In this document: positions 1 through 13,275 of the stretch, in pieces
Position numbering within the stretch: position 1 is the stretch's first letter
Layout of the letters: every line of letters begins with the position of its first letter
Sequence record: PQ433351.1
Reading direction: 5' to 3' (one strand)
DNA length: 44,261 nt
Source: Escherichia phage vB_Ec-G9
Made by a program: the position numbers and the translations under genes
Notes under the pieces: model-generated
Seen by the model: only the letters and a program-made list of their open reading frames with translations
Database searches by the model: none
Told to the model about the DNA's origin: nothing

Positions 1-1988
1 TGGCTATTATTCAGAATGTACCGTGTCCTGCCTGTCAAAAGAATGGACATGATGTTACCGGCAACCATCTCATGATCTTTGATGATGGTGCTGGCTATTG
101 CAACCGTGGTCACTTCCACGATAACGGAAAGCCATACTACCATAAGCCCGAAGGTGGCATCGAGATAACCGAGTTGCCTATTACTGGCAATATCAAATAT
201 ACACCTTCTCAGTTCAAAGAGATGGAGAAGGAAGGGAAGATAAGCGACCTTAAGCTACGCGCCATCGCACTAGGTGGTATGCGTATGAAAGACCGTTGGG
301 AGGTTATGAATGAGCAAGAAAGGGCAGACCAAGAAGCAGATTGGAAACTTGATGTTGAATGGTTCCTCACGCTTAAGCGTAAGAACCTTGTATCCCGACA
401 CATTCGCGGCGACATCGCAGCACTATATGATGTGCGAGTGGGCCATGATGAGGAAGGAAGAGTCAATCGTCACTACTACCCCCGCTTCGAGAAAGGTGAG
501 CTAGTAGGCGCTAAGTGCCGTACCTTACCTAAAGACTTTAAGTTTGGTCATTTAGGTAAACTATTTGGTATGCAAGATCTTTTCGGTATGAATACTTTGT
601 CTCACGTGTTAGACAAGGGAAGACGAAAGGATTGCTTGCTTATTGTAGGCGGCGAACTTGATGCACTAGCAGCCCAGCAGATGCTTCTTGATTCCGCCAA
701 GGGCACTAAGTGGGAAGGACAACCATATCATGTGTGGTCTGTCAACAAGGGTGAGTCTTGCCTTGAAGAGATAGTGCAGAACCGTGAACACATCGCTCAA
801 TTCAAGAAGATTATATGGGGCTTTGATGGTGATGAGGTTGGGCAGAAGCAGAACCAACAAGCGGCTCGCCTGTTTCCTGGTAAATCCTATATCCTTGAGT
901 ATCCTTCTGGGTGCAAAGATGCTAACAAGGCATTGATGGCTGGCAAGGCTAAAGAATTTGTGGATGCTTGGTTTAATGCAAAGTCATCTGATGAAGTCTT
1001 TGGTAGCCAGATTAAATCTATCGCATCTCAAAGGGATAAGCTCAAGGCTGCACGTCCAGAGCAAGGACTATCATGGCCTTGGCCTAAGCTGAACAAGGTA
1101 ACGCTAGGTATTCGTAAGAACCAACTTATCATTGTAGGCGCAGGCTCTGGTGTAGGTAAGACTGAGTTCCTTCGTGAAGTAGTTAAGCACCTCATTGAAG
1201 AACACGGTGAATCTGTAGGCATCATTTCTACAGAAGACCCGATGGTCAAGGTGTCCCGTGCTTTTATCGGCAAGTGGATTGATAAGCGTATTGAGTTACC
1301 GCCAACCAACGACCCGAAAGAAGATGGATACCGTGAGGTGTTCGACTACACCGAGGAAGAGGCTAACGCCGCCATTGATTATGTAGCTGATACAGGTAAG
1401 CTGTTTGTAGCTGACCTAGAGGGTGACTATTCGATGGAAAAGGTAGAGCAAACTTGCCTAGAGTTTGAGGCTATGGGCATTTCTAATATCATCATTGATA
1501 ACTTAACGGGGATTAAATTAGATGAGCGTGCTTTTGGTGGGAAGGTTGGTGCACTTGATGAATGCGTCAAGCGGATTGGTACTATCAAAGACCGACACCC
1601 GGTTACTATATTCCTTGTATCACACCTTACACGTCCTCCGGCAAACCGTACCCAACACGAAGAAGGTGGCGAGGTTATCCTTTCTGACTTCCGAGGTTCA
1701 GGCGCTATCGGATTCTGGGCATCTTACGCCTTGGGGATTGAGCGTAATACAAGAGCTGAAACGCTTGACGAAAGGACTACCACGTACATCTCATGTGTCA
1801 AAGACCGCGACCAAGGAATCTGGACTGGAACCAAGGTCATGCTTAAGGGTGACATTCAAACCGGACGTTTAATGGAACCACAAGCCCGTACTAAGTCATT
1901 TGATACAGGTGAAGCAAGGCAACAAGAGGTGCCGGATTTACCGGACACTATAGAAGAGACAACCTTTGACGATGAACAGGAGTTTTAA
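1..1988 (+). CDS. DNA primase/helicase (T7 gp4-like); 5' end runs off the window start, the ATG is formed by pos 44261 + pos 1-2
   Basis: Open in frame from pos 3 with no stop; N-terminal Cys zinc ribbon CPAC...CNRGH typical of primases; Walker A GAGSGVGKT in helicase half; acidic C-terminus ending DDEQEF. Confidence 0.85.
   Translation, partial: AIIQNVPCPACQKNGHDVTGNHLMIFDDGAGYCNRGHFHDNGKPYYHKPEGGIEITELPITGNIKYTPSQFKEMEKEGKISDLKLRAIALGGMRMKDRWEVMNEQERADQEADWKLDVEWFLTLKRKNLVSRHIRGDIAALYDVRVGHDEEGRVNRHYYPRFEKGELVGAKCRTLPKDFKFGHLGKLFGMQDLFGMNTLSHVLDKGRRKDCLLIVGGELDALAAQQMLLDSAKGTKWEGQPYHVWSVNKGESCLEEIVQNREHIAQFKKIIWGFDGDEVGQKQNQQAARLFPGKSYILEYPSGCKDANKALMAGKAKEFVDAWFNAKSSDEVFGSQIKSIASQRDKLKAARPEQGLSWPWPKLNKVTLGIRKNQLIIVGAGSGVGKTEFLREVVKHLIEEHGESVGIISTEDPMVKVSRAFIGKWIDKRIELPPTNDPKEDGYREVFDYTEEEANAAIDYVADTGKLFVADLEGDYSMEKVEQTCLEFEAMGISNIIIDNLTGIKLDERAFGGKVGALDECVKRIGTIKDRHPVTIFLVSHLTRPPANRTQHEEGGEVILSDFRGSGAIGFWASYALGIERNTRAETLDERTTTYISCVKDRDQGIWTGTKVMLKGDIQTGRLMEPQARTKSFDTGEARQQEVPDLPDTIEETTFDDEQEF
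1935..1958 (+). promoter_or_regulatory. phage RNAP promoter embedded in primase/helicase 3' coding region
   Basis: GATTTACCGGACACTATAGAAGAG matches the window's promoter consensus; encodes PDTIEE in frame. Confidence 0.7.
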
Positions 1989-2149
1989 TGGAAATTATTA
2001 AACCAGTATTGAATATCGGTATTGAGATCCTATTCATGCTTGTGATCGCAGATTATGCTGCACGATATGGCTTCAAGAAAGCAGTGAAACTTATCGTTGC
2101 ATCTGGTTTTATGATGTCAATGTTCTTTATTGTAACACGCCTTATCTAG
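1988..2149 (+). CDS. small hydrophobic protein (53 aa)
   Basis: ATG overlaps upstream stop (TAATG); hydrophobic sequence; below ORF-track size cutoff, found by reading. Confidence 0.35.
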   Translation: MEIIKPVLNIGIEILFMLVIADYAARYGFKKAVKLIVASGFMMSMFFIVTRLI

Positions 2150-2166
2150 TGTATTTATCAGGGCTT

Positions 2167-2182
2167 GTCTCACATGTGAGAC
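2167..2182. repeat. 16-bp perfect palindrome GTCTCACATGTGAGAC (copy 1 of 7)
   Basis: Exact palindrome in intergenic gap, flanked by extra symmetric bases (GCTTG...CAGGC). Confidence 0.9.
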
Positions 2183-2221
2183 AGGCTCTTATTAAGTACA
2201 TTAAATAACTGGAGATTGATT

Positions 2222-2905
2222 ATGTATAAATTAGTATTGAATGTAGGTGATTATGTTCGTAACATCAATGAAGCCTCACGTCGTTATCGTTGCCGTGGTG
2301 TAGTGGCTCGTGTAAGTGAGAACATGTATCATGTAGAATATGATGATGGTATTAAGGCTTCTTATCACAAGAAAACCGCACATAAATATCTTGAAAAGGT
2401 TGTAGAGGTAAACAATCAATGTAAGTGCATACATGATGAGGTTTGCGATAAATGTGCTCGCCAGATGCTTAAGAATTTCCTAGCTCCTCTTTATTATGGT
2501 GCTGGTCCTCAAACACTAGCAGAGTGCATGGCAGAAAAGAAAACCACACTCAAGAAAGAGCGTCGCAATGTAATCACTGGTAAGACTCAAAGTGAGATGA
2601 TTAAGCAATGTGGCACTGCATTAGGTGTTACACAGTTCAATACTCGTGCATTGGGTAAATCCACAGGGCAAGCTATGGTGAAGATTGGCGAAGCCATGAT
2701 GCATCCGAATATACCTGTACGAATCATGGATATAGACCATGCAATCACAGAACATGGGTCTTCACGCCGTGTTATTAACACCCATTTTGCCGACACTATA
2801 GAAGGTATTATTCGTAAGCAAGGTTTGAAGGGTCTTCACATCTTAAATGGTGAAGAATTACTGTACCTACCTATCGTTACTGAAGAGACATACGTGGATA
2901 TCTAA
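2222..2905 (+). CDS. hypothetical protein (228 aa)
   Basis: ORF with RBS GGAG 7 nt upstream of ATG 2222; Cys-rich segment CKCIHDEVCDKC; no recognisable family. Confidence 0.65.
   Translation: MYKLVLNVGDYVRNINEASRRYRCRGVVARVSENMYHVEYDDGIKASYHKKTAHKYLEKVVEVNNQCKCIHDEVCDKCARQMLKNFLAPLYYGAGPQTLAECMAEKKTTLKKERRNVITGKTQSEMIKQCGTALGVTQFNTRALGKSTGQAMVKIGEAMMHPNIPVRIMDIDHAITEHGSSRRVINTHFADTIEGIIRKQGLKGLHILNGEELLYLPIVTEETYVDI
2783..2805 (+). promoter_or_regulatory. degenerate phage-promoter-like sequence inside coding region
   Basis: CATTTTGCCGACACTATAGAAGG: core GACACTATAGAAG intact, -13 to -10 deviate from consensus; encodes ADTIEG in frame. Confidence 0.35.
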
Positions 2906-2915
2906 GGAGTTAATC

Positions 2916-3134
2916 ATGACTAAGGTATTAATTTACATGCGTGGACCTCATAAATGCTATGCAGTTGTAGCACCAAATGGTGTTAAGCCCTATAGTACTT
3001 CAAAAGGATTGGCATTAATAGGTGCTAGTAGTAGTGCAAGTTTCCAAATGGAACTTTTTGGTCATTGGAATGAAAGGCAATTCCGTGAGGATTTTAAAGT
3101 CATTGGCAGCTTCATAGTGAAATATGCAGAATAA
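2916..3134 (+). CDS. hypothetical protein (72 aa)
   Basis: Strong RBS AAGGAG upstream of ATG 2916. Confidence 0.55.
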   Translation: MTKVLIYMRGPHKCYAVVAPNGVKPYSTSKGLALIGASSSASFQMELFGHWNERQFREDFKVIGSFIVKYAE

Positions 3135-3300
3135 ACATAGTCTTAAAATGTTCGATGGTCATGAAGACCTGCAAGCCAAGATTACTAACCAAGCCTTCCT
3201 GTTTGCACAGTTAACTATGGCTGAAGCAAAGAAGAATAGCCTGACGCGTGAACAGGTTATCAAGGAAAGTGAAGTGAAACGTAAGATTCGCAGTCGATAA
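3124..3300 (+). CDS. hypothetical small protein (58 aa)
   Basis: ATG 3124 overlapping upstream stop; below ORF-track cutoff; weak RBS. Confidence 0.3.
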   Translation: MQNKHSLKMFDGHEDLQAKITNQAFLFAQLTMAEAKKNSLTREQVIKESEVKRKIRSR

Positions 3301-3310
3301 GTCAAGGGTT

Positions 3311-3326
3311 GTCTCACACGTGAGAC
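3311..3326. repeat. palindrome variant GTCTCACACGTGAGAC (copy 2)
   Basis: One central base differs from the perfect palindrome; intergenic. Confidence 0.8.
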
Positions 3327-3357
3327 AGCCTTTCATCATATTGATTGGAGGTGCATT

Positions 3358-3465
3358 ATGCCACGTGATTATGATTCTGATTGGGACTATTATGACTCAA
3401 TGAATCCAAAACCCGAACGTTCAGATGATTACTACGAAACAGAGGCAATGTATGAAGACTATTGA
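3358..3465 (+). CDS. very acidic Asp/Tyr-rich micro-protein (35 aa)
   Basis: RBS GGAGG upstream of ATG 3358; sequence MPRDYDSDWDYYDSMNPKPERSDDYYETEAMYEDY; overlaps DNA polymerase start. Confidence 0.3.
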   Translation: MPRDYDSDWDYYDSMNPKPERSDDYYETEAMYEDY

Positions 3466-5998
3466 TTGGAAGAAGGAGGCAGAAGGTCGTATCCTCGTGA
3501 TGGATGCGGAAGCTAAAGGACTCCTTGACGCTATCCGATATGGACACCGTGAAGATGTGCATATCATTTGCTGCATGGATTTGCTTACTACCGAGGAGTT
3601 TCTCTTCTTTGACCCGTATGAGATGCGTGACCCTGAAGCAAGAGAACGCCTGAAGGAATGGGAAGGTCATCAAGATGGAACCTTGGTTGACGGTGTTAAC
3701 TTCCTGAAGCATTGTGAAGCTATTGTGTCACAGAACTTCCTAGGGTATGACGGCCTTCTCTTTGAGAAGGCATTCCCTGATATTTGGAAAGGCTTTAACT
3801 ATACCGAGAAGCGCGGTAAGGGCAGACTCCGTGCTGACCTGTGTCCTATCCGTGTTGTAGATACGCTGGTGATGAGTCGTCTGCTAAACCCAGATAGACG
3901 CCTTCCTCCGCAAGCATATGCCAAAGGCATGGGTAACGTCGCCCCTCACTCAATTGAGGCGCACGGCATCCGTATAGGCCGCTATAAACCAGAGAACAAG
4001 GACTGGTCTAAACTAACTGACCACATGGTTCACCGTGTACGTGAAGACGTGGCAATTGGTCGTGACTTTTTCCTATGGCTTTACAACGGAGAGTGGACGG
4101 AGCACAAACGCCGTGGCGTGAACAAACGTACTGGCCTAGGGATTGAGACAGCCTTCCACATGGAGTCCATTGTGGCGCTGGAGATGAGCCGTCAGGCAGA
4201 GCGTGGATTCCGTCTGGATATTGACAAAGCACTAGCGCGATGCGAAGAACTGGACGCTAAGATTGATGAGACAGTCGCAGCGTTCCGCCCTCACATGCCT
4301 ATGCGTATCAAGTCTAAACCTTTTAAACCGGAAGAAAAGAATGAAGTATGCCAACGCGCAAATGAGTATGGAGCTAGCAACAATATACCTACTGTCCTTG
4401 ACCCCTCACACTTTCTTCATGCCGAGAGACGAGGAGATCGCAAGACAGTATGGAGTGTCACTACTAAGTCTGGTGATTGGTCGGCTAGTGTCAAGAAAGA
4501 CTTTCCTCACCTTAGAGGAAACCGTAATGACACGCCAAGCATCAAGTGGATTGGCGCTTACTCGCCTGTTACTTTCGAAGAGATTCCCTTGGGTAACAGG
4601 GATACAGTTAAGCAAGTGCTCTATGATTATGGATGGAAAGGTGTTGAATTTAACGATACCGAGCAAGCGCATCTCGATGAGCACGGAGTGTTACCCAAAC
4701 CTTGGAGTGGTAAGATAAATGAAAAGTCCCTTACTTTATGGCAAGAAAGAGCCGCACGTGAAGGTAAAACAGTCCCTGATTGGTGCTTGGGTATCGCTGC
4801 ATGGTACATACTCGTATCCCGTCGTGGTCAGATACTCAACCGTGGTGACGTTGAAGCCTTCAACGAGAAGGGAACGTGGCCCTCGCAGGCTGGTGTACGA
4901 AAGTGTCGCGGCCTTGTACCTGTAGCATTCAACAAGGAGCTAGGAATCAATGCGCAGCAATACTACGAGAGGTACGGATGTTGGCCTACGTCTGACAAAG
5001 ATGACGGAGAGTGGCGTGTTCCAGCTGTTGCTATTAGCATTGGCACTTCTACGTTCCGTATGCGTCATCGTAACGTGGTTAATATTCCTGCCCGTGGCTT
5101 GTATCCTTTACGTGATTTATTCATAGCAGGGAAAGGCAAGCTAATCCTTGGTTGTGACGGTGCAGGTCTTGAACTGCGTGTCCTGTCTCACTTCATGAAT
5201 GACCCTGAGTACCAAGAGATTGTACTGCACGGTGATATTCATACGCATAACCAGATGAAGGCTGGTCTTCCTAAGCGTGATATGGCGAAGACGTTTATAT
5301 ACGCCTTCCTCTATGGCTCTGGTATAGCCAACCTTGCAGCAGTATGTGGTGTTACTGAGGAAGAAATGAAGGAAGTTGTGGCAAGATTCGAGATTGAACT
5401 ACCATCTCTTGCACGTCTTCGTGAGAATGTTATCGCACAAGGTAACAAGTTTGGCTACCTGCAAGCACCTGATGGACATTGGGGTCGCATCCGCATGTCT
5501 GGTGGTGAACTTAAAGAGCACACGATGCTTAACGTATTACTCCAGATGACTGGCTCTTTGTGTATGAAATATGCATTAGTCAAGGCATTTGCAGTAATGC
5601 GCAAGGAAGGTGTAGCCTTGGATGCTATGGGAAATCCTTGTGGTGTGGCTAACGTGCATGATGAAATCCAGATGGAAGTTCCTGAAGAGGAGGTCTTGTA
5701 TCTTAACTACGACCTACCTTTCACCTTAGATGGGTTCGAAACAGAGAAGGTTGCCGTGAAAGCAGTGTTCGATGCAGAGGAGAAACGTGTTCATGTGGAT
5801 TCTGAAGGACGTATGTGGTCTGCTGCAAACCTAGTTAGTGTTGATGCTGATGCTGGTGTATTGCATTGCCAGCGCCGTTATCACCGTGCAGGTCATATCA
5901 TTGCCGACGCCATGACTTGGGCAGGGCAGTATCTGAAGATGCGTTGCCCGATGGCAGGCGAATATAAGATTGGCGCAAGTTGGAAGGAAACACACTGA
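3452..5998 (+). CDS. family A DNA polymerase with 3'-5' exonuclease domain (T7 gp5-like)
   Basis: Exo motif ILVMDAEA near N-terminus; pol motifs DGAGLELRV, KTFIYAFLYGSG, VHDEIQ; start placed at ATG 3452 (RBS GAGG) rather than ORF-track 3425. Confidence 0.9.
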   Translation: MKTIDWKKEAEGRILVMDAEAKGLLDAIRYGHREDVHIICCMDLLTTEEFLFFDPYEMRDPEARERLKEWEGHQDGTLVDGVNFLKHCEAIVSQNFLGYDGLLFEKAFPDIWKGFNYTEKRGKGRLRADLCPIRVVDTLVMSRLLNPDRRLPPQAYAKGMGNVAPHSIEAHGIRIGRYKPENKDWSKLTDHMVHRVREDVAIGRDFFLWLYNGEWTEHKRRGVNKRTGLGIETAFHMESIVALEMSRQAERGFRLDIDKALARCEELDAKIDETVAAFRPHMPMRIKSKPFKPEEKNEVCQRANEYGASNNIPTVLDPSHFLHAERRGDRKTVWSVTTKSGDWSASVKKDFPHLRGNRNDTPSIKWIGAYSPVTFEEIPLGNRDTVKQVLYDYGWKGVEFNDTEQAHLDEHGVLPKPWSGKINEKSLTLWQERAAREGKTVPDWCLGIAAWYILVSRRGQILNRGDVEAFNEKGTWPSQAGVRKCRGLVPVAFNKELGINAQQYYERYGCWPTSDKDDGEWRVPAVAISIGTSTFRMRHRNVVNIPARGLYPLRDLFIAGKGKLILGCDGAGLELRVLSHFMNDPEYQEIVLHGDIHTHNQMKAGLPKRDMAKTFIYAFLYGSGIANLAAVCGVTEEEMKEVVARFEIELPSLARLRENVIAQGNKFGYLQAPDGHWGRIRMSGGELKEHTMLNVLLQMTGSLCMKYALVKAFAVMRKEGVALDAMGNPCGVANVHDEIQMEVPEEEVLYLNYDLPFTLDGFETEKVAVKAVFDAEEKRVHVDSEGRMWSAANLVSVDADAGVLHCQRRYHRAGHIIADAMTWAGQYLKMRCPMAGEYKIGASWKETH

Positions 5999-6616: not shown

Positions 6617-6994
6617 ATGTCAATGGTGACTACTCTGGTATTCGTAGCTCAATACTTTCGTGGTTTGGCTAACAAGTTCAAAGCTAAGGCTATCAAAGCT
6701 ATTGAGTCTCGCATTGAAGCAGTACAGGCAGAGCAGTTTGAAGTTGAAGAACATCGTAGTTCTCAAATGATTGACTGCCACAATCGCTACTATGCATCTC
6801 GTGATGACCTTAATGCACGTCAAGTCAAAGAGGTAGAAGAGATGATGGCACGTCACCAGCAAGAGCGAGACAATCTGAAGGCAGACTTTGAAGAGAACAA
6901 AGCATCCATTGCACTGGTACATCAAGCTGCATCTGACAGCCTGAAGAAAGAGATTGTTATGCTGGAGATTGAACTGGACAATCTGACCAAATAA
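6617..6994 (+). CDS. hypothetical coiled-coil protein (125 aa)
   Basis: RBS AGGAG upstream; charged heptad-like sequence. Confidence 0.6.
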   Translation: MSMVTTLVFVAQYFRGLANKFKAKAIKAIESRIEAVQAEQFEVEEHRSSQMIDCHNRYYASRDDLNARQVKEVEEMMARHQQERDNLKADFEENKASIALVHQAASDSLKKEIVMLEIELDNLTK

Positions 6995-7014
6995 TTACTG
7001 GACACTATAGAACA
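6994..7014 (+). promoter_or_regulatory. phage RNAP promoter
   Basis: ATTACTGGACACTATAGAACA. Confidence 0.75.
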
Positions 7015-7071
7015 ATAGGTCGGCTTAGTTCGGCCTATGATTGTGTAGTGTAACAATAGGAGACTAAATCA

Positions 7072-7875
7072 ATGGCACGTAATTTTGATTTTGGCGCAGA
7101 GGTCACTAAGTCAGAAGGTAAAGTATTTAAGAACCCAGAAGTGGGCGACCATGAAGCTGTAATCTCTGGAATCATTCATGTTGGTTCCTTCCAAGATATC
7201 TTTAAGAAAGGCAATACCACTGAAGTTAAGAAGCCAGCAAACTTTGTTCTTGTTAAGATTGTCCTGATGGGTGATGATGACAAGAACGAAGATGATTCAC
7301 GCATGGAACAGTGGATGGCTGTGCCTCTGAAGTCAGGTGATAAAGCTACTCTGACTAAGTTCCTGAATGCAGTTGATCCTAAAGAACTGCTGGGTGGCTT
7401 CGATGACTTCATCGGTGAATGCCTGACTGCAACTATGGTTGGCTCTGGCGACAAGAATGATGATGGTACTTTCAAGTATGTTAACTGGAAAGGCTTTGGC
7501 GGTATGCCTGATAAGTTGAAGAAGCTTGTACTGGCTCAGGTAGAAGAGGAAGGTCTGTCTATGACAGGTCATATCACCTTCGACAAGCTGACCAAAGAAA
7601 TCCTTGATGACATCCCAGCTAACTTGGTACGTCAATACTTCCTGAACGAGACACCTCGTGGTAAGAACCTGTCTGTTGCTGGCTCTCACGTAGAAGCTAT
7701 TATCAAAGCTGCTCGTGAAGAAGACCCAGAGTGGAAGAAAGCCAAGAAGAAAGATGACGAGGATGCTACTCCAGCTAATCGTAAGTCTCTGGATACTGGC
7801 GAGTCTGTTCCACAGGAAGTACCTGAAGCAGAAGATACTCCTGCACCGGAGATGGATGAGGACGCGGAATATTAA
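7072..7875 (+). CDS. abundant protein with acidic C-terminal tail; candidate ssDNA-binding protein (267 aa)
   Basis: RBS AGGAG; highly biased (expression-type) codon usage; C-terminus EMDEDAEY; position and tail resemble T7 gp2.5 logic; sequence similarity not established. Confidence 0.6.
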   Translation: MARNFDFGAEVTKSEGKVFKNPEVGDHEAVISGIIHVGSFQDIFKKGNTTEVKKPANFVLVKIVLMGDDDKNEDDSRMEQWMAVPLKSGDKATLTKFLNAVDPKELLGGFDDFIGECLTATMVGSGDKNDDGTFKYVNWKGFGGMPDKLKKLVLAQVEEEGLSMTGHITFDKLTKEILDDIPANLVRQYFLNETPRGKNLSVAGSHVEAIIKAAREEDPEWKKAKKKDDEDATPANRKSLDTGESVPQEVPEAEDTPAPEMDEDAEY

Positions 7876-7884
7876 GGAGAAAGG

Positions 7885-8103
7885 ATGAAAGTACAAATCG
7901 TAACCCTGCACTGCAAGAAAGGTATCACAACGCTCGGAGGTGGCACTTTCCACTCTTTCTCCGAAGGGGAGATTTATGCTGACCTGCACTACATCTGGCG
8001 CGACGGACAGCACGTGGTGAACTACAGCGACCCAGCTACGGGGAAACGCCACGGCGTATCGCTTCCGGCGCATGACATTGCTCAGGTGAACACAGTTTTA
8101 TAA
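7885..8103 (+). CDS. hypothetical protein (72 aa)
   Basis: RBS AAGGAG upstream. Confidence 0.55.
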   Translation: MKVQIVTLHCKKGITTLGGGTFHSFSEGEIYADLHYIWRDGQHVVNYSDPATGKRHGVSLPAHDIAQVNTVL

Positions 8104-8104
8104 A

Positions 8105-8120
8105 GTCTCACATGTGAGAC
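8105..8120. repeat. 16-bp perfect palindrome GTCTCACATGTGAGAC (copy 3)
   Basis: Exact; lies 15 bp upstream of promoter at 8136. Confidence 0.9.
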
Positions 8121-8135
8121 AAATCGGTGTCCGGT

Positions 8136-8159
8136 ATTTACTGGACACTATAGAAGAGA
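8136..8159 (+). promoter_or_regulatory. phage RNAP promoter
   Basis: TATTTACTGGACACTATAGAAGAG. Confidence 0.8.
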
Positions 8160-8207
8160 AGAATTTTAATCGGCGATAATGCCACAACTAACAAAGGAGA
8201 ATTTAAT

Positions 8208-8585
8208 ATGTTCAAGATTGAAACTATCGTAAACCGTGTTGTTAAAGGTGCTGCTCTGGTATCCGTTGAGTCTTTCATTATCGTCGATGAAGCTGATCAA
8301 CTGGTAGCTGGTACTAAGGCTTACGATACCCGTGAAGAAGCTCAGGCTAAGATTGACAGCATGGGTAACTTCGCTGCTGGTCTGGAGTTCGCTCGCGCTT
8401 GCTTCCCTGAGCAGGCTGACAAAGCTCAGATTGGTAAGGCTAATATCGTAGCTGAATATCTGGATTGGATTGCTGCTGGTAAGCCGGTGAAAGAAGTTAA
8501 GTCTGCTGAAGAAGCTGAAGCTCAGGCGGCAGAAGAAGTAGCTGCACCGGTAGATGCTCCGGTAAGCGAAGAAGAAGAGTTTTAA
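8208..8585 (+). CDS. highly expressed small protein with acidic C-terminal tail ending EEEEF (125 aa)
   Basis: Strong RBS AAAGGAGA; codon usage like capsid gene; followed directly by terminator; function unknown. Confidence 0.7.
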   Translation: MFKIETIVNRVVKGAALVSVESFIIVDEADQLVAGTKAYDTREEAQAKIDSMGNFAAGLEFARACFPEQADKAQIGKANIVAEYLDWIAAGKPVKEVKSAEEAEAQAAEEVAAPVDAPVSEEEEF

Positions 8586-8587
8586 TT

Positions 8588-8625
8588 GATGCCCTGTCTG
8601 CCTTAGTGTAGGCAGGGTCTTTTGC
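8588..8625 (+). terminator. intrinsic terminator (conserved twin of 18032)
   Basis: ATGCCCTGTCTGCC-TTAGTGTA-GGCAGGG followed by TCTTTTG; near-identical element after capsid gene. Confidence 0.65.
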
Positions 8626-8649
8626 GTAATAGTTATTGGAGAATGAATT

Positions 8650-8955
8650 ATGCCGACTATTAAATCTCGTTTAGTAGCAGACTATGTGTATGGTCGTGAC
8701 TTAAAGTTAATGCAAGATTACTTTAAAGTAATCATCCTGCTGGATGGAGAAGTGTTTCACACTAAAACATTCACCCTTCCTGAATTGTTTGATTTAGGTT
8801 ATTGGGGTTATACATATCAGGCCATAGCAGACAAGGTGCTACTCAGTGTATTAGAGGAGTGGCCTACATGCGACCAAACTTCGACTTCGGAGCTACAGTA
8901 TCGGAAGACAATAATCTCATCTTGTGGCCAACTGAAGGTAATCGAATCGCTTTAA
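8650..8955 (+). CDS. hypothetical ORF overlapping exonuclease start (101 aa)
   Basis: ATG 8650 with upstream GGAG; overlaps next gene by 88 nt in another frame, so uncertain. Confidence 0.3.
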   Translation: MPTIKSRLVADYVYGRDLKLMQDYFKVIILLDGEVFHTKTFTLPELFDLGYWGYTYQAIADKVLLSVLEEWPTCDQTSTSELQYRKTIISSCGQLKVIESL

Positions 8956-9896
8956 TAGATGCTGATATGTTACCTTACATCGTCGGGTATACAATCAGTG
9001 ACATGACTTATGTACGAGCTACAACTCGTGTTAAGTCAGGACAAGTCCCATCAATCAAAGATACCCCTGAGTGTAAGCAAGCGTGTGACCGTGTGAACTC
9101 CTTGCTTAACTCTTGGGTGTATGCAGCAGAGTGTGATGCTGCTAAGTTATTCATGACGAAATCAGAAGCTAACTTCCGTGTCCGCCTAGCATTCACCAAG
9201 CCTTACAAGGGTCAACGTAAGACCGAGAAGCCTCCATTCTTCTATGAATTGCGAGAGCATCTCTTAGAGGTTCATGGTGCAATCTTGGCAGATGGAGAAG
9301 AGGCTGATGACCTCATGAGCATTGCACAATGGGACAGCCACCGCCGCTTCCAGCAAGATACAGGTAACGAGTTCCCTATCGGTAGTCCAGAGCATAAAGC
9401 ATTCTCTGATACTTGCATCGTTTCCTTAGATAAGGATTTGATGATTGTTCCCGGTTGGCATCTTCAGCCGGGTCAAGAGAAGAAATGGGTAGAGCCTATG
9501 GGTTGGCTTGAGTTACGCCGTAAGGCTAATGGTCAGGTTAAAGACCTTAAAGGTGCTGGCCTCATGTTTCATTATGCACAGATGATTATCGGTGATGATA
9601 TTGATAACTATGCTGGCATACCTGGACGTGGTGCTAGATACGCCTATGATCTTCTCAAAGATTGTAAGACAGAGAAAGAGTTGTACATGGCAGTGCTTGG
9701 TGCTTACAAGGCTAAGTTCGGACATGGACAAGTTAAGATTAAGAATTACCGAGGGGGTTATCGTATCGGCAAGGCTTTTGACCTGATGCTCGAATGTGGT
9801 CGCCTAGCTCACATGGCAAGATTCAAAGGTGATATATGGCGAGCCGATAAGAACCCAATCTTGTGGGGAGATGATGCGGAATGGTTAGCAAATTAA
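8868..9896 (+). CDS. 5'-3' exonuclease (T7 gp6-like, FEN family)
   Basis: N-terminal IALIDADML and YKGQRK, EEADD motifs parallel T7 gp6 ILVMDGDWL / YKANRK / EGDD; start at ATG 8868 (RBS GAGGAG). Confidence 0.8.
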   Translation: MRPNFDFGATVSEDNNLILWPTEGNRIALIDADMLPYIVGYTISDMTYVRATTRVKSGQVPSIKDTPECKQACDRVNSLLNSWVYAAECDAAKLFMTKSEANFRVRLAFTKPYKGQRKTEKPPFFYELREHLLEVHGAILADGEEADDLMSIAQWDSHRRFQQDTGNEFPIGSPEHKAFSDTCIVSLDKDLMIVPGWHLQPGQEKKWVEPMGWLELRRKANGQVKDLKGAGLMFHYAQMIIGDDIDNYAGIPGRGARYAYDLLKDCKTEKELYMAVLGAYKAKFGHGQVKIKNYRGGYRIGKAFDLMLECGRLAHMARFKGDIWRADKNPILWGDDAEWLAN

Positions 9897-10282
9897 AATC
9901 ATCTGAGGTAGCAGCTTATAAGAGGGAATTGCTAGAGAAGCAAGGATGGAAGTGCCCCCTATGTGGCGGCAGTCTCAAGGCTGTTACTCCTATAAACCGT
10001 GTACTTGACCATGACCATGAGACAGGATTCTGCCGTGCTGTTGTATGCCGAGGCTGCAATGGTGCAGAAGGAAAGATTAAGGGTGTTATCTCTGGTTACG
10101 GTAAGGCGGGTAACAACCGTTACTTCCAGCTTCAATGGTTAGAGCGACTATATGAATACTGGAAGTTACATAGTACGCCTCAGACAGATAAGTTATATCA
10201 CAAACATCAAACGGAGGCAGAGAAGCGCGAGGCTAAGAACCGTAAGGCACGCCTTGCTTATGCAAGAAAGAAAGGAGTATGA
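9881..10282 (+). CDS. endonuclease VII-type Holliday junction resolvase
   Basis: CPLCG...DHDHETG...CRGCN zinc/HxH motif pattern typical of T4 endo VII family. Confidence 0.75.
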   Translation: MVSKLKSSEVAAYKRELLEKQGWKCPLCGGSLKAVTPINRVLDHDHETGFCRAVVCRGCNGAEGKIKGVISGYGKAGNNRYFQLQWLERLYEYWKLHSTPQTDKLYHKHQTEAEKREAKNRKARLAYARKKGV

Positions 10283-10283
10283 T

Positions 10284-10715
10284 ATGGACTGTATAGACCA
10301 CGGGCATTATAAGTGCTTAAATCAATTAGGTTACTACAGGTCGTGGCATAAACCTAGTAAGAAGTTGCAATTACTTCATCGCGTGGTCTATGCAGAGCAC
10401 CACGGCCTTTCTATAGAGGATATAAAGGATGTAGTGATTAGACACACTTGTGATAATGCAAGATGTATAAACCCTGCACACTTAATATCTGGTACACAGC
10501 AGGACAACATTCAAGACATGATAGGTAGAGGCAGGCGTGCTAGCTTTGCAGGCGAAAAGAATAATCGCGCTAAACTGACTTGGGATGTTGTACGTGCTAT
10601 CAGGGCAACATATGTTGCTAATAAGAAAGGTGAGAGGTTACGACTAGCTAAGCTATATAATGTCTCACCTGCTACCATTAGTGATATTGTAAGCGGGAGG
10701 GTTTGGAAAGAATAA
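10284..10715 (+). CDS. HNH homing endonuclease
   Basis: LHRVVYAEHHG ... VIRHTCDNARCINPAHL (HNH_3-like) plus C-terminal DNA-binding tail; RBS AAAGGAG. Confidence 0.8.
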   Translation: MDCIDHGHYKCLNQLGYYRSWHKPSKKLQLLHRVVYAEHHGLSIEDIKDVVIRHTCDNARCINPAHLISGTQQDNIQDMIGRGRRASFAGEKNNRAKLTWDVVRAIRATYVANKKGERLRLAKLYNVSPATISDIVSGRVWKE

Positions 10716-11722
10716 TGGGTAAGATTAGAAACTTGTTTACTAATAAGGAGGTAGAAGAAGCAGTTGAAAGTGCAAAGCGCGATGATGGCACTATCAACTA
10801 TCGCCTGATGGCGTCTATTCTCTCAGATAACACACATGGGACTACAGTTACAAGGCAGCTTGCAAAGTATTGGGCCAAACAGTTTGAAAAGCGGAAGAAG
10901 AATGGCGAGGCGTATGAAACCTTGGCTATTGCGAACCGTGCTATCAAAGAAGAACGTAAGCTCAGGACTCCTGACCGCTACGAGGATTTGGCTATTGTAC
11001 CATTGCCTGACTCGCCTCATCGAAGTGTATTGGTAATACCTGACACCCATGCACCTTATGAGCATCCAGATACATTAGAGTTTCTGGCAGCGGTGGCAGC
11101 ACGTTACCGTCCAGACACTGTAATTCATCTTGGTGATGAGGCGGACAAGCACGCACTTTCATTCCATACGTCAGATCCTAATCTGGATTCTGCTGGTATG
11201 GAGTTAGAGAAGGCTCGTATCTTCATGCGTAAATTACATAAGATGTTCCCTGTAATGCGCATCTGCCACTCTAATCATGGCTCCTTACATTTCCGTAAGG
11301 CCAGTGCTCATGGCATCCCTGTGCAATACCTGCGCACCTACCGTGAAGTCTTCTTCCCGCAGGGAGGTGGCGACCAGTGGGATTGGCAGCATACGCACGT
11401 CCTTGAGTTGCCGAATGGTGAACAAGTGGCATTCAAGCATCAACCTGCTGGCTCTGTCCTAGCAGATGCAGCGCATGAGCGTATGAACCTTGTGTGTGGT
11501 CACTTGCACGGTAAGATGTCTGTGGAGTACGCACGTAATACACATGAACAGTATTGGGCTGTGCAAGGTGGCTGCTTAATTGATGAGTCATCCCGTGCAT
11601 TTGCCTATGGGCGTGAGTCTAAATACAAGCCAGCATTAGGTTGTGTGGTTATTCTGGAGGGTGTACCTCATATTGTCCCGATGCAAACCAATAGCGACAA
11701 CCGTTGGATTGGCAAGATTTAG
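10715..11722 (+). CDS. calcineurin-like metallophosphoesterase
   Basis: VIPDTHAPY ... HLGDEADKH ... CGHLHG: DxH / GDxxD / GHxH metallophosphatase motifs. Confidence 0.75.
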   Translation: MGKIRNLFTNKEVEEAVESAKRDDGTINYRLMASILSDNTHGTTVTRQLAKYWAKQFEKRKKNGEAYETLAIANRAIKEERKLRTPDRYEDLAIVPLPDSPHRSVLVIPDTHAPYEHPDTLEFLAAVAARYRPDTVIHLGDEADKHALSFHTSDPNLDSAGMELEKARIFMRKLHKMFPVMRICHSNHGSLHFRKASAHGIPVQYLRTYREVFFPQGGGDQWDWQHTHVLELPNGEQVAFKHQPAGSVLADAAHERMNLVCGHLHGKMSVEYARNTHEQYWAVQGGCLIDESSRAFAYGRESKYKPALGCVVILEGVPHIVPMQTNSDNRWIGKI

Positions 11723-11742: not shown

Positions 11743-11822
11743 GCTAGGTAAGACTTTATCGGCTGGTGTATCCAAATGATATTGCACTAGCCCTTGATTG
11801 TATAGTGAATGGAGGATTCAAT

Positions 11823-12326
11823 ATGTCACACTATGAATGTAAGAAGTGTCATAAGCGTTATGATTACTGTACTTGTGGTCAAGAGAAAACATCTTTTAAA
11901 GTTGGAGACAAGGTATTTCGTAATGAAAAAGATTCGATTCCTTGGAATCAATACTGCAAAGAAGCTGGTATTGACCCTGATAGCCCTGTAACCATAGATG
12001 ATATTGATGGCATTAACTTGTGCTTTCGTGAGGTGAGGGGTACAGGTTGGGATTCCAAAAAATTCAAACTTGCATCTGATAAGTTAGACAACAATATGGT
12101 AACTCAGCCTAAGCACTACGAGTTCTTTGATGGCGTAGAAGCAATTACTATCATCGCCCGTAGTATGACCGAGAAGCAATTCGCGGGGTATTGCATGGGT
12201 AATGCTTTGAAGTATCGTCTGCGTGCAGGTAAGAAGTTCAATACTGAAGAAGACCTGAAGAAAGCAGACTACTACAAAGAGTTATTCCAGAAGCATCGTC
12301 ACGAATGTATTGATGAGGATATTTGA
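11823..12326 (+). CDS. hypothetical protein with N-terminal Cys-rich zinc-ribbon-like segment (167 aa)
   Basis: RBS GGAGG before ATG 11823; CKKCHKRYDYCTC; conserved-looking C-terminal block GYCMGNALKYRLRAGKK. Confidence 0.6.
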   Translation: MSHYECKKCHKRYDYCTCGQEKTSFKVGDKVFRNEKDSIPWNQYCKEAGIDPDSPVTIDDIDGINLCFREVRGTGWDSKKFKLASDKLDNNMVTQPKHYEFFDGVEAITIIARSMTEKQFAGYCMGNALKYRLRAGKKFNTEEDLKKADYYKELFQKHRHECIDEDI

Positions 12327-12327
12327 T

Positions 12328-13275
12328 ATGAATATCTTTGAGTTCCTAGGTCTTCCAGAAGACCACCGCAATCACCCATTCATGCTGGTGAAGCATCGCG
12401 GTGAAGTTCCTGAGAAGAAATTAACTTTTCCATGTTATGCACAGGTGAAACGAGATGGAATATTCAGTGCTGTTGTGGTGCGCAATGATGGTGCTGTTGC
12501 CATCTTTGGTCGTACTGGTAAGAAGCTCGCAAATGTTGAATCCTTGGAAAAGACATTTAGTTTATTTCCTGTCGGGTTGTATCTTGGTGAGTTGCAATCT
12601 ATGGCTGTTGATGTTTATCTTGAAGCTCTGTCAGGAGTGGTAAACCCTAATCGTACAGAGCCACTTGACTTCATAGGCCAGCAGATTAAAGACAACCTGT
12701 ATATCGACTTCTTCGATATGTTAACTATTAAGGCATTCCATGATGGATTCACTGATGTTTCTTATCTCAAACGTTACGATGCTTTACATCGTCGCATCGG
12801 CGCTCATCTTAGCGGGTACAACGCTATCCTTCCTATTACTCCTTGCCATAATGAGCGAGAAGTTGAAGCGTTTGCGCAAGAGCAGATAGACGCAGGCCGA
12901 GAGGGTGCTGTATTCAAACTGGACTGCGATTATGAAGCAGGCCACAAAGGTTATCGTCAGACTAAAGAAGTCCGTAAGGTAACTTATGACCTTACTTGTA
13001 TTGGCTTTGAAGAAGGTAAAGGTAAGTACAAAGGTAAGGTAGCTAACCTCATTTTCAAATGGAAAGGAGGCAAGACAATCAAAGCTATGTTAGGTAAAGG
13101 GTGGACTCATGCAGATGCAGAACAGATGTTCCACGACATTAAACATGGTGGACGATTGAATGTCATTGGTAAAATCTTTGAAGTCAAAGGTCTTCAGGAT
13201 TCAAGCAAGGGCAACATTCGTCTGCCCAAAGCGGGAGAATTAAGACATGACAAAGATGAACCAGATTTCTTTTGA
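12328..13275 (+). CDS. ATP-dependent DNA ligase
   Basis: Motif I KRDG (AQVKRDGIFS), EGAVFK motif; size and position fit phage ligase. Confidence 0.8.
   Translation: MNIFEFLGLPEDHRNHPFMLVKHRGEVPEKKLTFPCYAQVKRDGIFSAVVVRNDGAVAIFGRTGKKLANVESLEKTFSLFPVGLYLGELQSMAVDVYLEALSGVVNPNRTEPLDFIGQQIKDNLYIDFFDMLTIKAFHDGFTDVSYLKRYDALHRRIGAHLSGYNAILPITPCHNEREVEAFAQEQIDAGREGAVFKLDCDYEAGHKGYRQTKEVRKVTYDLTCIGFEEGKGKYKGKVANLIFKWKGGKTIKAMLGKGWTHADAEQMFHDIKHGGRLNVIGKIFEVKGLQDSSKGNIRLPKAGELRHDKDEPDFF

Follow-up and report, generated by a model that had tools for sequence, protein, structure and literature searches.

Why should two replication proteins of unrelated fold begin with the same peptide? The question is raised by a 44,261-nucleotide stretch of Escherichia phage vB_Ec-G9 (PQ433351.1), referred to below as the window. 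Its genome belongs to Vectrevirus, the K1-5/K1E/SP6-like group of the Autographiviridae, and its region 7000-9900 is ~97% identical to Vectrevirus T147P1 and to Escherichia phage vB-Eco-KMB47. In this region, a 267-residue protein that is likely to be the phage's binding protein for single-stranded DNA (SSB) and a 5'-3' flap exonuclease both carry NFDFGA at their N-terminus. The answer we propose is that this peptide is the core of a flexible docking module of ~30 residues, and that the module rather probably addresses both proteins to one common receptor. The features concerned are:

7072-7875, + strand: 267-residue protein, SSB candidate (K1-5 gene 16 homologue, phrog_862)
7072-7170, + strand: N-terminal module of the SSB candidate, residues 1-33, with the core F5-D-F-G8-A-E-V11 at 7084-7104
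within the SSB candidate: second element V18-F-K-N-P22-E-V-G25, running into strand 1
7852-7872, + strand: acidic C-terminal tip MDEDAEY of the SSB candidate, T7 gp2.5-type, with an aromatic last residue
8868-9896, + strand: exonuclease, 342 residues, 5'-3' (flap), T7 gp6 counterpart (phrog_107)
8868-8966, + strand: N-terminal module of the exonuclease, residues 1-33, with the core F5-D-F-G8-A-T-V11 at 8880-8900
within the exonuclease: second element L17-I-L-W20-P-T-E-G24, running into catalytic strand 1 (IALIDAD)
tail-derived peptides of the two proteins: MARNFDFGAEVTKSEGKVFKNPEVG and MRPNFDFGATVSEDNNLILWPTEG

The two genes share a peptide and not a DNA sequence

The open reading frame (ORF) 7072-7875 begins MARNFDFGAEV and the exonuclease, read from the ATG at 8868, begins MRPNFDFGATV; the common start noticed in the original prediction is thereby found again both in the sequence and in the ORF list. 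The program-made ORF list places the beginning of the exonuclease at a TTG (8802), and the ATG at 8868 has a GAGGAG Shine-Dalgarno sequence before it and agrees with the starts of the orthologues. The six residues are encoded by AAT TTT GAT TTT GGC GCA at 7081-7098 and by AAC TTC GAC TTC GGA GCT at 8877-8894, so that 12 of the 18 bases are identical (all first and second positions) and all six third positions differ. The corresponding degenerate pattern, AAYTTYGAYTTYGG, occurs exactly twice in the 44-kb window versus 0 expected from 100 shuffles. When the first 15 residues of the 59 plus-strand ORFs starting with ATG are compared, no other pair has a 5-mer or 6-mer in common, and a common 6-mer arises in 0.5% of random sets of the same composition. 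A chance similarity is ruled out by the shuffles, by this frequency and by the conservation of the peptide in orthologues.

The motif is written in 21 distinct nucleotide versions in each of the two families, which indicates that selection acts on the peptide, in line with what had been predicted from the pair of sequences. A DNA-level repeat or a gene conversion is excluded by the same variety of synonymous versions and by the difference at every third codon position.

Two meanings had been offered for the common start, a shared interaction motif and a shared translation-initiation context. The first is the better supported. The second, widened to include a nascent peptide that would ease early elongation, could appeal to the good Shine-Dalgarno sequences located 8-9 nt upstream of both genes and to the position of the motif within the first 12 codons in most members. 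It is almost certainly not the explanation: besides the divergent third positions and the numerous nucleotide versions, the two genes are no more alike in nucleotides than the common peptide requires, the number of residues between start codon and motif ranges from 1 to 12, ~30 residues are conserved with a fixed internal spacing, and in the clade of loci L055 and L059 (loci of relatives are numbered with the prefix L) the equivalent region is situated 25-45 residues into the protein.

The start of the exonuclease gene lies inside the p101 ORF (8650-8955), with an 88-nt overlap in a different frame, and the motif codons of the exonuclease are therefore read in two frames in vB_Ec-G9. As p101 is absent from most of the distant motif-bearing genomes, this overlap does not explain the conservation of the motif.

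The motif is the core of a longer conserved module

The relatives examined were 49 for the SSB candidate and, for the exonuclease, the best 120 of 179. In nearly every full-length relative, the motif F-[DNE]-[FY]-G-[AG]-[ED]-[VIL] starts 1-12 residues from the start codon, and its F and G are retained without exception in both families, members with as little as about 35-38% identity included. The absence of the motif from orthologues, which would have spoken for coincidence, is not what was found: neither F5 nor G8 varies in the 31 sequences of the SSB family or in the 114 of the exonuclease family. In the SSB family (down to 38% identity), M1, G16 and G25 are equally invariant, and conservation reaches 90% or more at A9, F19, N21 and P22. 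In the exonuclease family, W20 and G24 accompany F5 and G8 at a level of conservation equal to that of the catalytic Asp.

Conservation thus delineated extends well beyond the six residues first noticed, whose reality stands and whose extent had been understated. The comparison of the two family profiles with hhalign yields one local match of 31 columns, between positions 3-33 of the SSB family and 3-32 of the exonuclease family (E 6.4e-5), and the F, the G and a second G are invariant across both families in the joint alignment. The layout of the module is F-D-[FY]-G-[AG]-[ED]-Φ, a loop of ~8 residues, Φ-Φ-[K/W]-x-P-x-x-G, then strand 1. Between the two elements the linker changes in sequence and keeps its length: 58 of 66 SSB tails and 118 of 127 exonuclease tails have 13-14 residues from G to P.

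These characters are those of a short linear motif: in the predicted models both tails are flexible regions outside the folded domain, and a short conserved core is surrounded by varying flanks, with A or G as the residue after the G in most members. The known motifs to which the tails were compared are of another kind. The bacterial β-clamp-binding consensus is Q-L-[SD]-L-F or QLxLxL, and neither tail contains a Q or L pattern of this type; the LAST motif of T4 gp32 is basic (K/R-K/R-S/T), and FD[FY]G[AG][ED]Φ is acidic and hydrophobic. In the WD40-like repeat proteins P0188, P0174 and P0185 (...DGQIKLWPKDG...), the match to the module profile is limited to its second element. This resemblance in sequence hints that Φ-K-Φ-W-P-x-x-G may form a strand-turn.

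The module precedes two unrelated folds

The 267-residue protein is annotated as hypothetical in every GenBank record listed. It has no Pfam match, its PHROG (phrog_862) is of unknown function, and no PDB sequence match is found at E<=1. Its predicted model comprises a flexible N-tail, an OB-fold core and an acidic C-tail. The predicted OB-fold, combined with a C-tail resembling that of gp2.5, argues that the protein is likely a phage SSB. The gene context would fit ssDNA binding, the gene being located downstream of the polymerase gene, with its own promoter, in a module where no other SSB is annotated. Its C-terminus, ...PEMDEDAEY, follows the family pattern P-x-[ML]-[DS]-x3-E-[YF], and the terminal [YF] after acidic residues is kept in all full-length members of the family. 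No homology to gp2.5 is detectable when the family is compared with T7 gp2.5 by hhalign (probability 0.07%, E 0.67), and the candidate, judged by sequence, appears to resemble gp2.5 in its C-tail without being a demonstrable member of the gp2.5 family. The closest structural match of the model is PrgE (PDB 8S4S). In AlphaFold confidence (predicted local distance difference test, pLDDT) the N-tail is the poorest part of the model, with 30 for residues 1-10, 48 for 11-20 and values below 50 throughout 1-16, and DSSP assigns essentially no strand to residues 1-24.

The exonuclease matches the phrog_107 exonuclease with an E-value of 2.9e-72. Its AlphaFold model (pLDDT 94.8) has the PIN-like nuclease fold, including the helical arch and the H3TH DNA-binding module, and the 30 PDB matches obtained with Foldseek at E<=1e-3 are all of the flap endonuclease (FEN) family: ExoIX, T5 FEN, T4 RNase H, Mycobacterium FEN and human FEN1. 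Residues D31, D33, E145, D147, D148, D188, D190, D243 and D246 are invariant in the 114 sequences, and these acidic residues would correspond to the two metal sites. The Pfam profile 5_3_exonuc (PF01367) remains below its gathering score (21.3 bits versus 40, E 3.9e-4) and covers residues 238-277 only; a precomputed PF01367 match is present in some orthologues. On the evidence of its predicted fold and of its PHROG, the enzyme is a divergent FEN subfamily. Its tail has a pLDDT of 61 (residues 1-10) and 79 (residues 11-20) versus more than 95 elsewhere, and no secondary structure is predicted before the strand 27-31, DSSP giving no strand in residues 1-26. The impression that the two proteins are unrelated is borne out by this opposition of an OB-fold and a FEN nuclease.

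Could the tail act on the protein that bears it? It would then be either an acidic-aromatic, DNA-mimicking autoinhibitory element or a strand-turn-strand cap extending strand 1, kept in both genes after an ancient transfer of a 5' segment between them. The continuation of the shared segment into strand 1 of both proteins, the strand-turn character of the second element suggested by the WD40 repeats and the intermediate pLDDT of the exonuclease tail are compatible with such a role, and the C-tail of T7 gp2.5 is described in the literature as occupying its own DNA-binding cleft. We consider it quite improbable: a groove fitting one and the same peptide would be required in each of two unrelated cores, the net charge of the motif is just ~-2, strands are essentially lacking in the DSSP assignment of both tails, and the invariant F and G, together with the identity of the residue after the G in the two proteins, would be difficult to account for if there were no common receptor.

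The module is restricted to the two proteins and co-inherited

A regular-expression scan of the window and of the complete genomes of two distant phages, Klebsiella phage Roth32 and Pseudomonas phage Achelous, disclosed no third protein with the N-terminal motif. When a hidden Markov model (HMM) of the module was applied to the six-frame ORFs of 108 loci (1.24 Mb), 97 exonuclease and 88 SSB ORFs were recovered, and the 6 other matches were all below 7 bits. Against 1.84 billion representative proteins, the module profile gave 28 matches at E<=1e-3, among which no third family appears: they are members of the two families, fragments, or WD40-like repeats matching the second element only.

The module is present on the two proteins together in 83 of the loci that possess both genes. 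In every discordant locus, either a gene is cut by the end of the contig or the exonuclease tail, of the FDYG type, is under the HMM threshold. Where the exonuclease starts directly at strand 1 (L068, L072, L074-76), an SSB of the family studied here is undetectable or is devoid of the motif. When IMG/VR was scanned a second time with the SSB family as seed, the contigs recovered were the same and none departed from this pattern. The phiKMV-like and T7 exonucleases align from about residue 25 only, without the extension or the motif, and the shared motif is not present in T7 gp2.5 and gp6. These motif-less relatives and the joint presence or absence imply that the catalytic core does not need the tail and that the two tails are gained or lost together. 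The module is co-inherited and restricted to two functionally linked replication proteins, the SSB candidate and the flap exonuclease responsible for Okazaki-fragment maturation.

In L055 and L059, W-D-[EIV]-[DGT] replaces F-D-[FY]-G in both proteins, behind Lys-rich N-terminal extensions; this replacement was seen by eye, in a region left unaligned by the HMMs. Other terminal tips are borne by the following relatives:

L055, 4938-6038
L059, 3302-4429
L068, 1901-2545
L074, 3603-4346

The exonucleases of L055 and L059 end in ...EEDDIPF and ...EKEIPF, like the tip of E. coli SSB, and the SSB-like proteins of L068 and L074 end in ...DDDDDIPF and ...EGEDIPW.

A probable docking module and its possible receptors

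A peptide that is conserved as such, dispensable for the fold, confined to two families and co-inherited in them is best accounted for as a docking module for one common receptor. Both the binding of a protein by the module and the identity of the partner are what we infer from this combination. The two tails would bind the same surface of the receptor, and the exonuclease would be brought to the place of the SSB tail or would compete for it.

The receptor that we favour, tentatively, is the SSB itself, through its core or through its identical module. The SSB tail would bind the neighbouring SSB monomer, or the module of this monomer, on ssDNA and would act as a cooperativity tail; the copy of the tail present on the exonuclease would dock on the SSB-coated lagging-strand template, beside the 5' end to be processed. 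More tentatively still, the module might be a homotypic or filament-end connector: SSB monomers would be chained along ssDNA, the exonuclease would cap one defined end of the SSB filament, and the nuclease would be positioned, with a polarity of its own, where the preceding Okazaki fragment has its 5' end. If true, such a connector would provide an answer, by molecular mimicry, to the question of how a T7-type SSB recruits and stimulates a gp6-type exonuclease. In T7, gp2.5 specifically stimulates gp6 and E. coli SSB cannot, the physical basis of this effect being called an open question (PMC4124056). In PrgE, the N-terminal tail binds the neighbouring monomer on ssDNA and its deletion abolishes oligomerisation (PMC11137577).

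A parallel change of one residue bears on the idea of a common receptor. Within a genome, the two proteins have the same residue after the G: SP6-like phages and the enterobacterial phages related to them have A/A, the Colwellvirinae/Vibrio-phage clade has G/G, and L060 has E/E. The permutation test of this pairing is nominally significant. The sequences offer about two clean independent co-changes, which constitute weak evidence, supportive and not decisive; as proof of a common receptor the covariation was downgraded on account of these few co-changes and of the confounding with the host.

Several observations weigh against a docking module with the SSB as its receptor. In the neighbour-joining tree of the exonuclease cores, the change from A to G occurs once, in one clade, and that from A to E once; the basal clade is mixed, with T in one protein and C, V or A in the other after the G; the F/Y position of the motif does not co-vary between the two proteins; and host group and phage clade are fully confounded. 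The probability of the hhalign match between the modules is just 64%. The tail of the SSB candidate is not docked on its own core in the AlphaFold model (pLDDT 30), and the intermediate values of the exonuclease tail (61-79) would allow a partial packing on its own core. The contacts of the PrgE tail are polar and its sequence is unrelated to the module. Finally, the feature of gp2.5 reported as necessary for the stimulation of gp6 is its C-tail and not its N-tail (PMC4124056).

Phages infecting Enterobacterales (E. coli, Klebsiella, Edwardsiella, Proteus) have A after the G, those of Vibrio and Pseudomonas have G, and this correspondence with the host group could be read as the signature of a host receptor, a replication or repair factor or a chaperone captured by both phage proteins. 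Such a receptor is very doubtful, given that the host group cannot be separated from the phage clade and that the motif resembles neither the β-clamp motif QL[SD]LF nor the DDDIPF tip of SSB, the latter being used separately by some relatives.

A less likely receptor than the SSB is the DNA polymerase or the primase/helicase, on which the SSB and the exonuclease would alternate at one site. In the polymerase version, the last SSB would leave as the Okazaki fragment is completed, and the exonuclease tail would then occupy the site. T7 provides a precedent, the unrelated gp2.5 and gp4 sharing one type of tail that interacts with gp5. In the window, acidic C-tails with a terminal aromatic residue are found in the primase/helicase (...TTFDDEQEF), the SSB candidate (...PEMDEDAEY), the small protein p125 (...VSEEEEF) and the ligase (...DKDEPDFF); the T7 gp2.5/gp4 tail type is here extended to the ligase and to p125, and the exonuclease is the sole maturation enzyme without an acidic C-tail. 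With four such tails the replisome is clearly wired by terminal peptides, which favours a polymerase or helicase receptor, and the data on distribution and conservation fit this receptor as well as they fit the SSB. On the other hand, the SSB candidate already possesses a gp2.5-type C-tail, presumably for the polymerase, and a second polymerase tail would be redundant; moreover, the motif-less clades still encode family-A polymerases (L074, ORF 1594-3465).

The gene of p125 (8208-8585) lies between those of the SSB candidate and the exonuclease, and p125 may be a component of the replisome, as a third component or an adaptor. As the receptor, it would hold both N-tails and would be tethered to the polymerase by its own acidic C-tail. 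Homologues of p125 were detected with jackhmmer in 86 loci, nearly all motif-bearing and none motif-less. Most motif-bearing phages, distant ones among them, encode p125 between the two genes, nearly always with an acidic C-tail whose last residue is F. Short p125-like proteins with acidic tails ending in F occupy the same position in distant loci and in annotated Edwardsiella and Vibrio phages. Examples of the homologues are:

L001, 22545-22904
L109, 5002-5361
L110, 5344-5697

The absence of p125 from motif-less loci and its tail, ...SEEEEF with a terminal F, would suit an adaptor. An adaptor of this kind is nevertheless improbable as the receptor: the same jackhmmer search detected no p125 in L055, L057, L059, L062 and L067, and in L057 the exonuclease gene directly follows the SSB gene with the motif kept in both. 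The function of phrog_4429, to which p125 belongs, is not known, and p125 has no Pfam match.

Comparison with known systems

The acidic C-terminal tails of T7 gp2.5 and gp4 bind the T7 DNA polymerase (gp5). The likeness with the present case is close, since in both, within the Autographiviridae, two unrelated folds carry the same short terminal peptide, which in T7 has one replisome partner. The Vectrevirus module differs in being N-terminal and hydrophobic or weakly acidic (FDFGAEV), with an invariant Gly, and in having a second element 13-14 residues downstream, on the SSB candidate and the exonuclease.

PrgE of pCF10, an OB-fold protein, shares with the SSB candidate an N-terminal tail on an SSB-like protein, but the two tails have no sequence similarity and PrgE binds dsDNA as well as ssDNA. 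We know of no second protein that copies the PrgE tail. In T4, the N-terminal (B) domain of gp32 mediates cooperative self-association, and a partner of gp32 is the FEN-type RNase H that removes primers, a precedent that also speaks for the SSB as receptor. The gp32 element is the basic LAST motif and is not known to be shared with RNase H, which binds gp32 via its C-terminal domain; in Vectrevirus, by contrast, an acidic-hydrophobic peptide is present on both proteins, and the likeness is a functional analogy only.

The C-terminal tip of E. coli SSB (DDDIPF) is likewise a terminal peptide serving as a docking site for DNA-processing enzymes, and tips of this type are reused by relatives, as in the exonuclease of L055 and the SSB-like protein of L068. 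In the E. coli hub only the SSB bears the peptide and the pockets belong to the enzymes, whereas in Vectrevirus the enzyme and the SSB candidate both carry the N-terminal peptide. The stimulation of gp6 by gp2.5 concerns the same functional pair, a phage SSB and a gp6-type FEN, but it is reported to depend on the gp2.5 C-tail (PMC4124056), and T7 is without the shared N-terminal motif. As a docking element, the module would work like the tail wiring of T7, T4 and E. coli; it differs from that wiring in its N-terminal position, its chemistry, its two-part layout and its presence on both an SSB candidate and a nuclease.

Organization of the locus

The other features of the region are:

72-1988: primase/helicase, replication module
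3425-5998: DNA polymerase, replication module
6998-7012, + strand: core of a phage-RNA-polymerase promoter, CTGGACACTATAGAA, 60 nt 5' of the SSB-candidate gene
7885-8103: p72, replication module
8208-8585, + strand: p125 (phrog_4429), small protein between the SSB-candidate and exonuclease genes
8591-8623, + strand: hairpin followed by a U-run, between the p125 and p101/exonuclease genes
8650-8955: p101, 101-residue ORF (phrog_10319, label 'DNA repair protein')
9881-10282: endonuclease VII, replication module
10152-10715: HNH endonuclease (phrog_6254/59)
10715-11722: metallophosphoesterase, replication module
11766-12326: nucleotide kinase, replication module
12328-13275: DNA ligase, replication module

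The promoter core CTGGACACTATAGAA has 10 matches in the window with <=2 mismatches, versus 0.11 expected, all on the + strand (1941, 6535, 6998, 8141, 11722, 16755, 29404, 31509, 33174 and 43478); one copy is located 53 nt upstream of the p125 gene. The hairpin at 8591-8623 consists of 11 bp, is GC-rich and is followed by UCUUUUG; its predicted RNA fold has a dG of -18.3 kcal/mol (z -3.5), which was equalled by 0 of 200 shuffles. This terminator-like structure suggests a lower expression of the exonuclease than of the SSB candidate and p125.

The last ~130 nt of the endonuclease VII gene are shared with the HNH-endonuclease ORF, whose true start may be an internal Met near residue 44, where the PHROG match starts. 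A 125-residue protein encoded at 6617-6994 of the window matches phrog_7450, labelled 'polysaccharide chain length determinant protein'; the label may reflect the look of a membrane-anchored coiled coil and not a function.

Conclusion

In conclusion, a protein annotated as hypothetical in the SP6/K1-5 group and in several related Autographiviridae subfamilies receives a likely assignment as an SSB, and this SSB candidate and the exonuclease are seen to have in common an N-terminal module that is conserved and co-inherited and that no other family among the proteins searched possesses. Wiring by terminal peptides is central to replisomes, as illustrated by the C-tails of T7 gp2.5 and gp4, the hub formed by the C-terminal tip of E. 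coli SSB and the PIP boxes. The finding is modest in this respect, the proposed docking motif being new and the type of system known; in the searchable literature, no paper mentions 'FDFGA' and none links SP6-like phages to an SSB. Phages of the SP6/K1-5 type are in therapeutic use against K1 E. coli, Klebsiella and Salmonella, and there is therefore a practical value in knowing their replication proteins.

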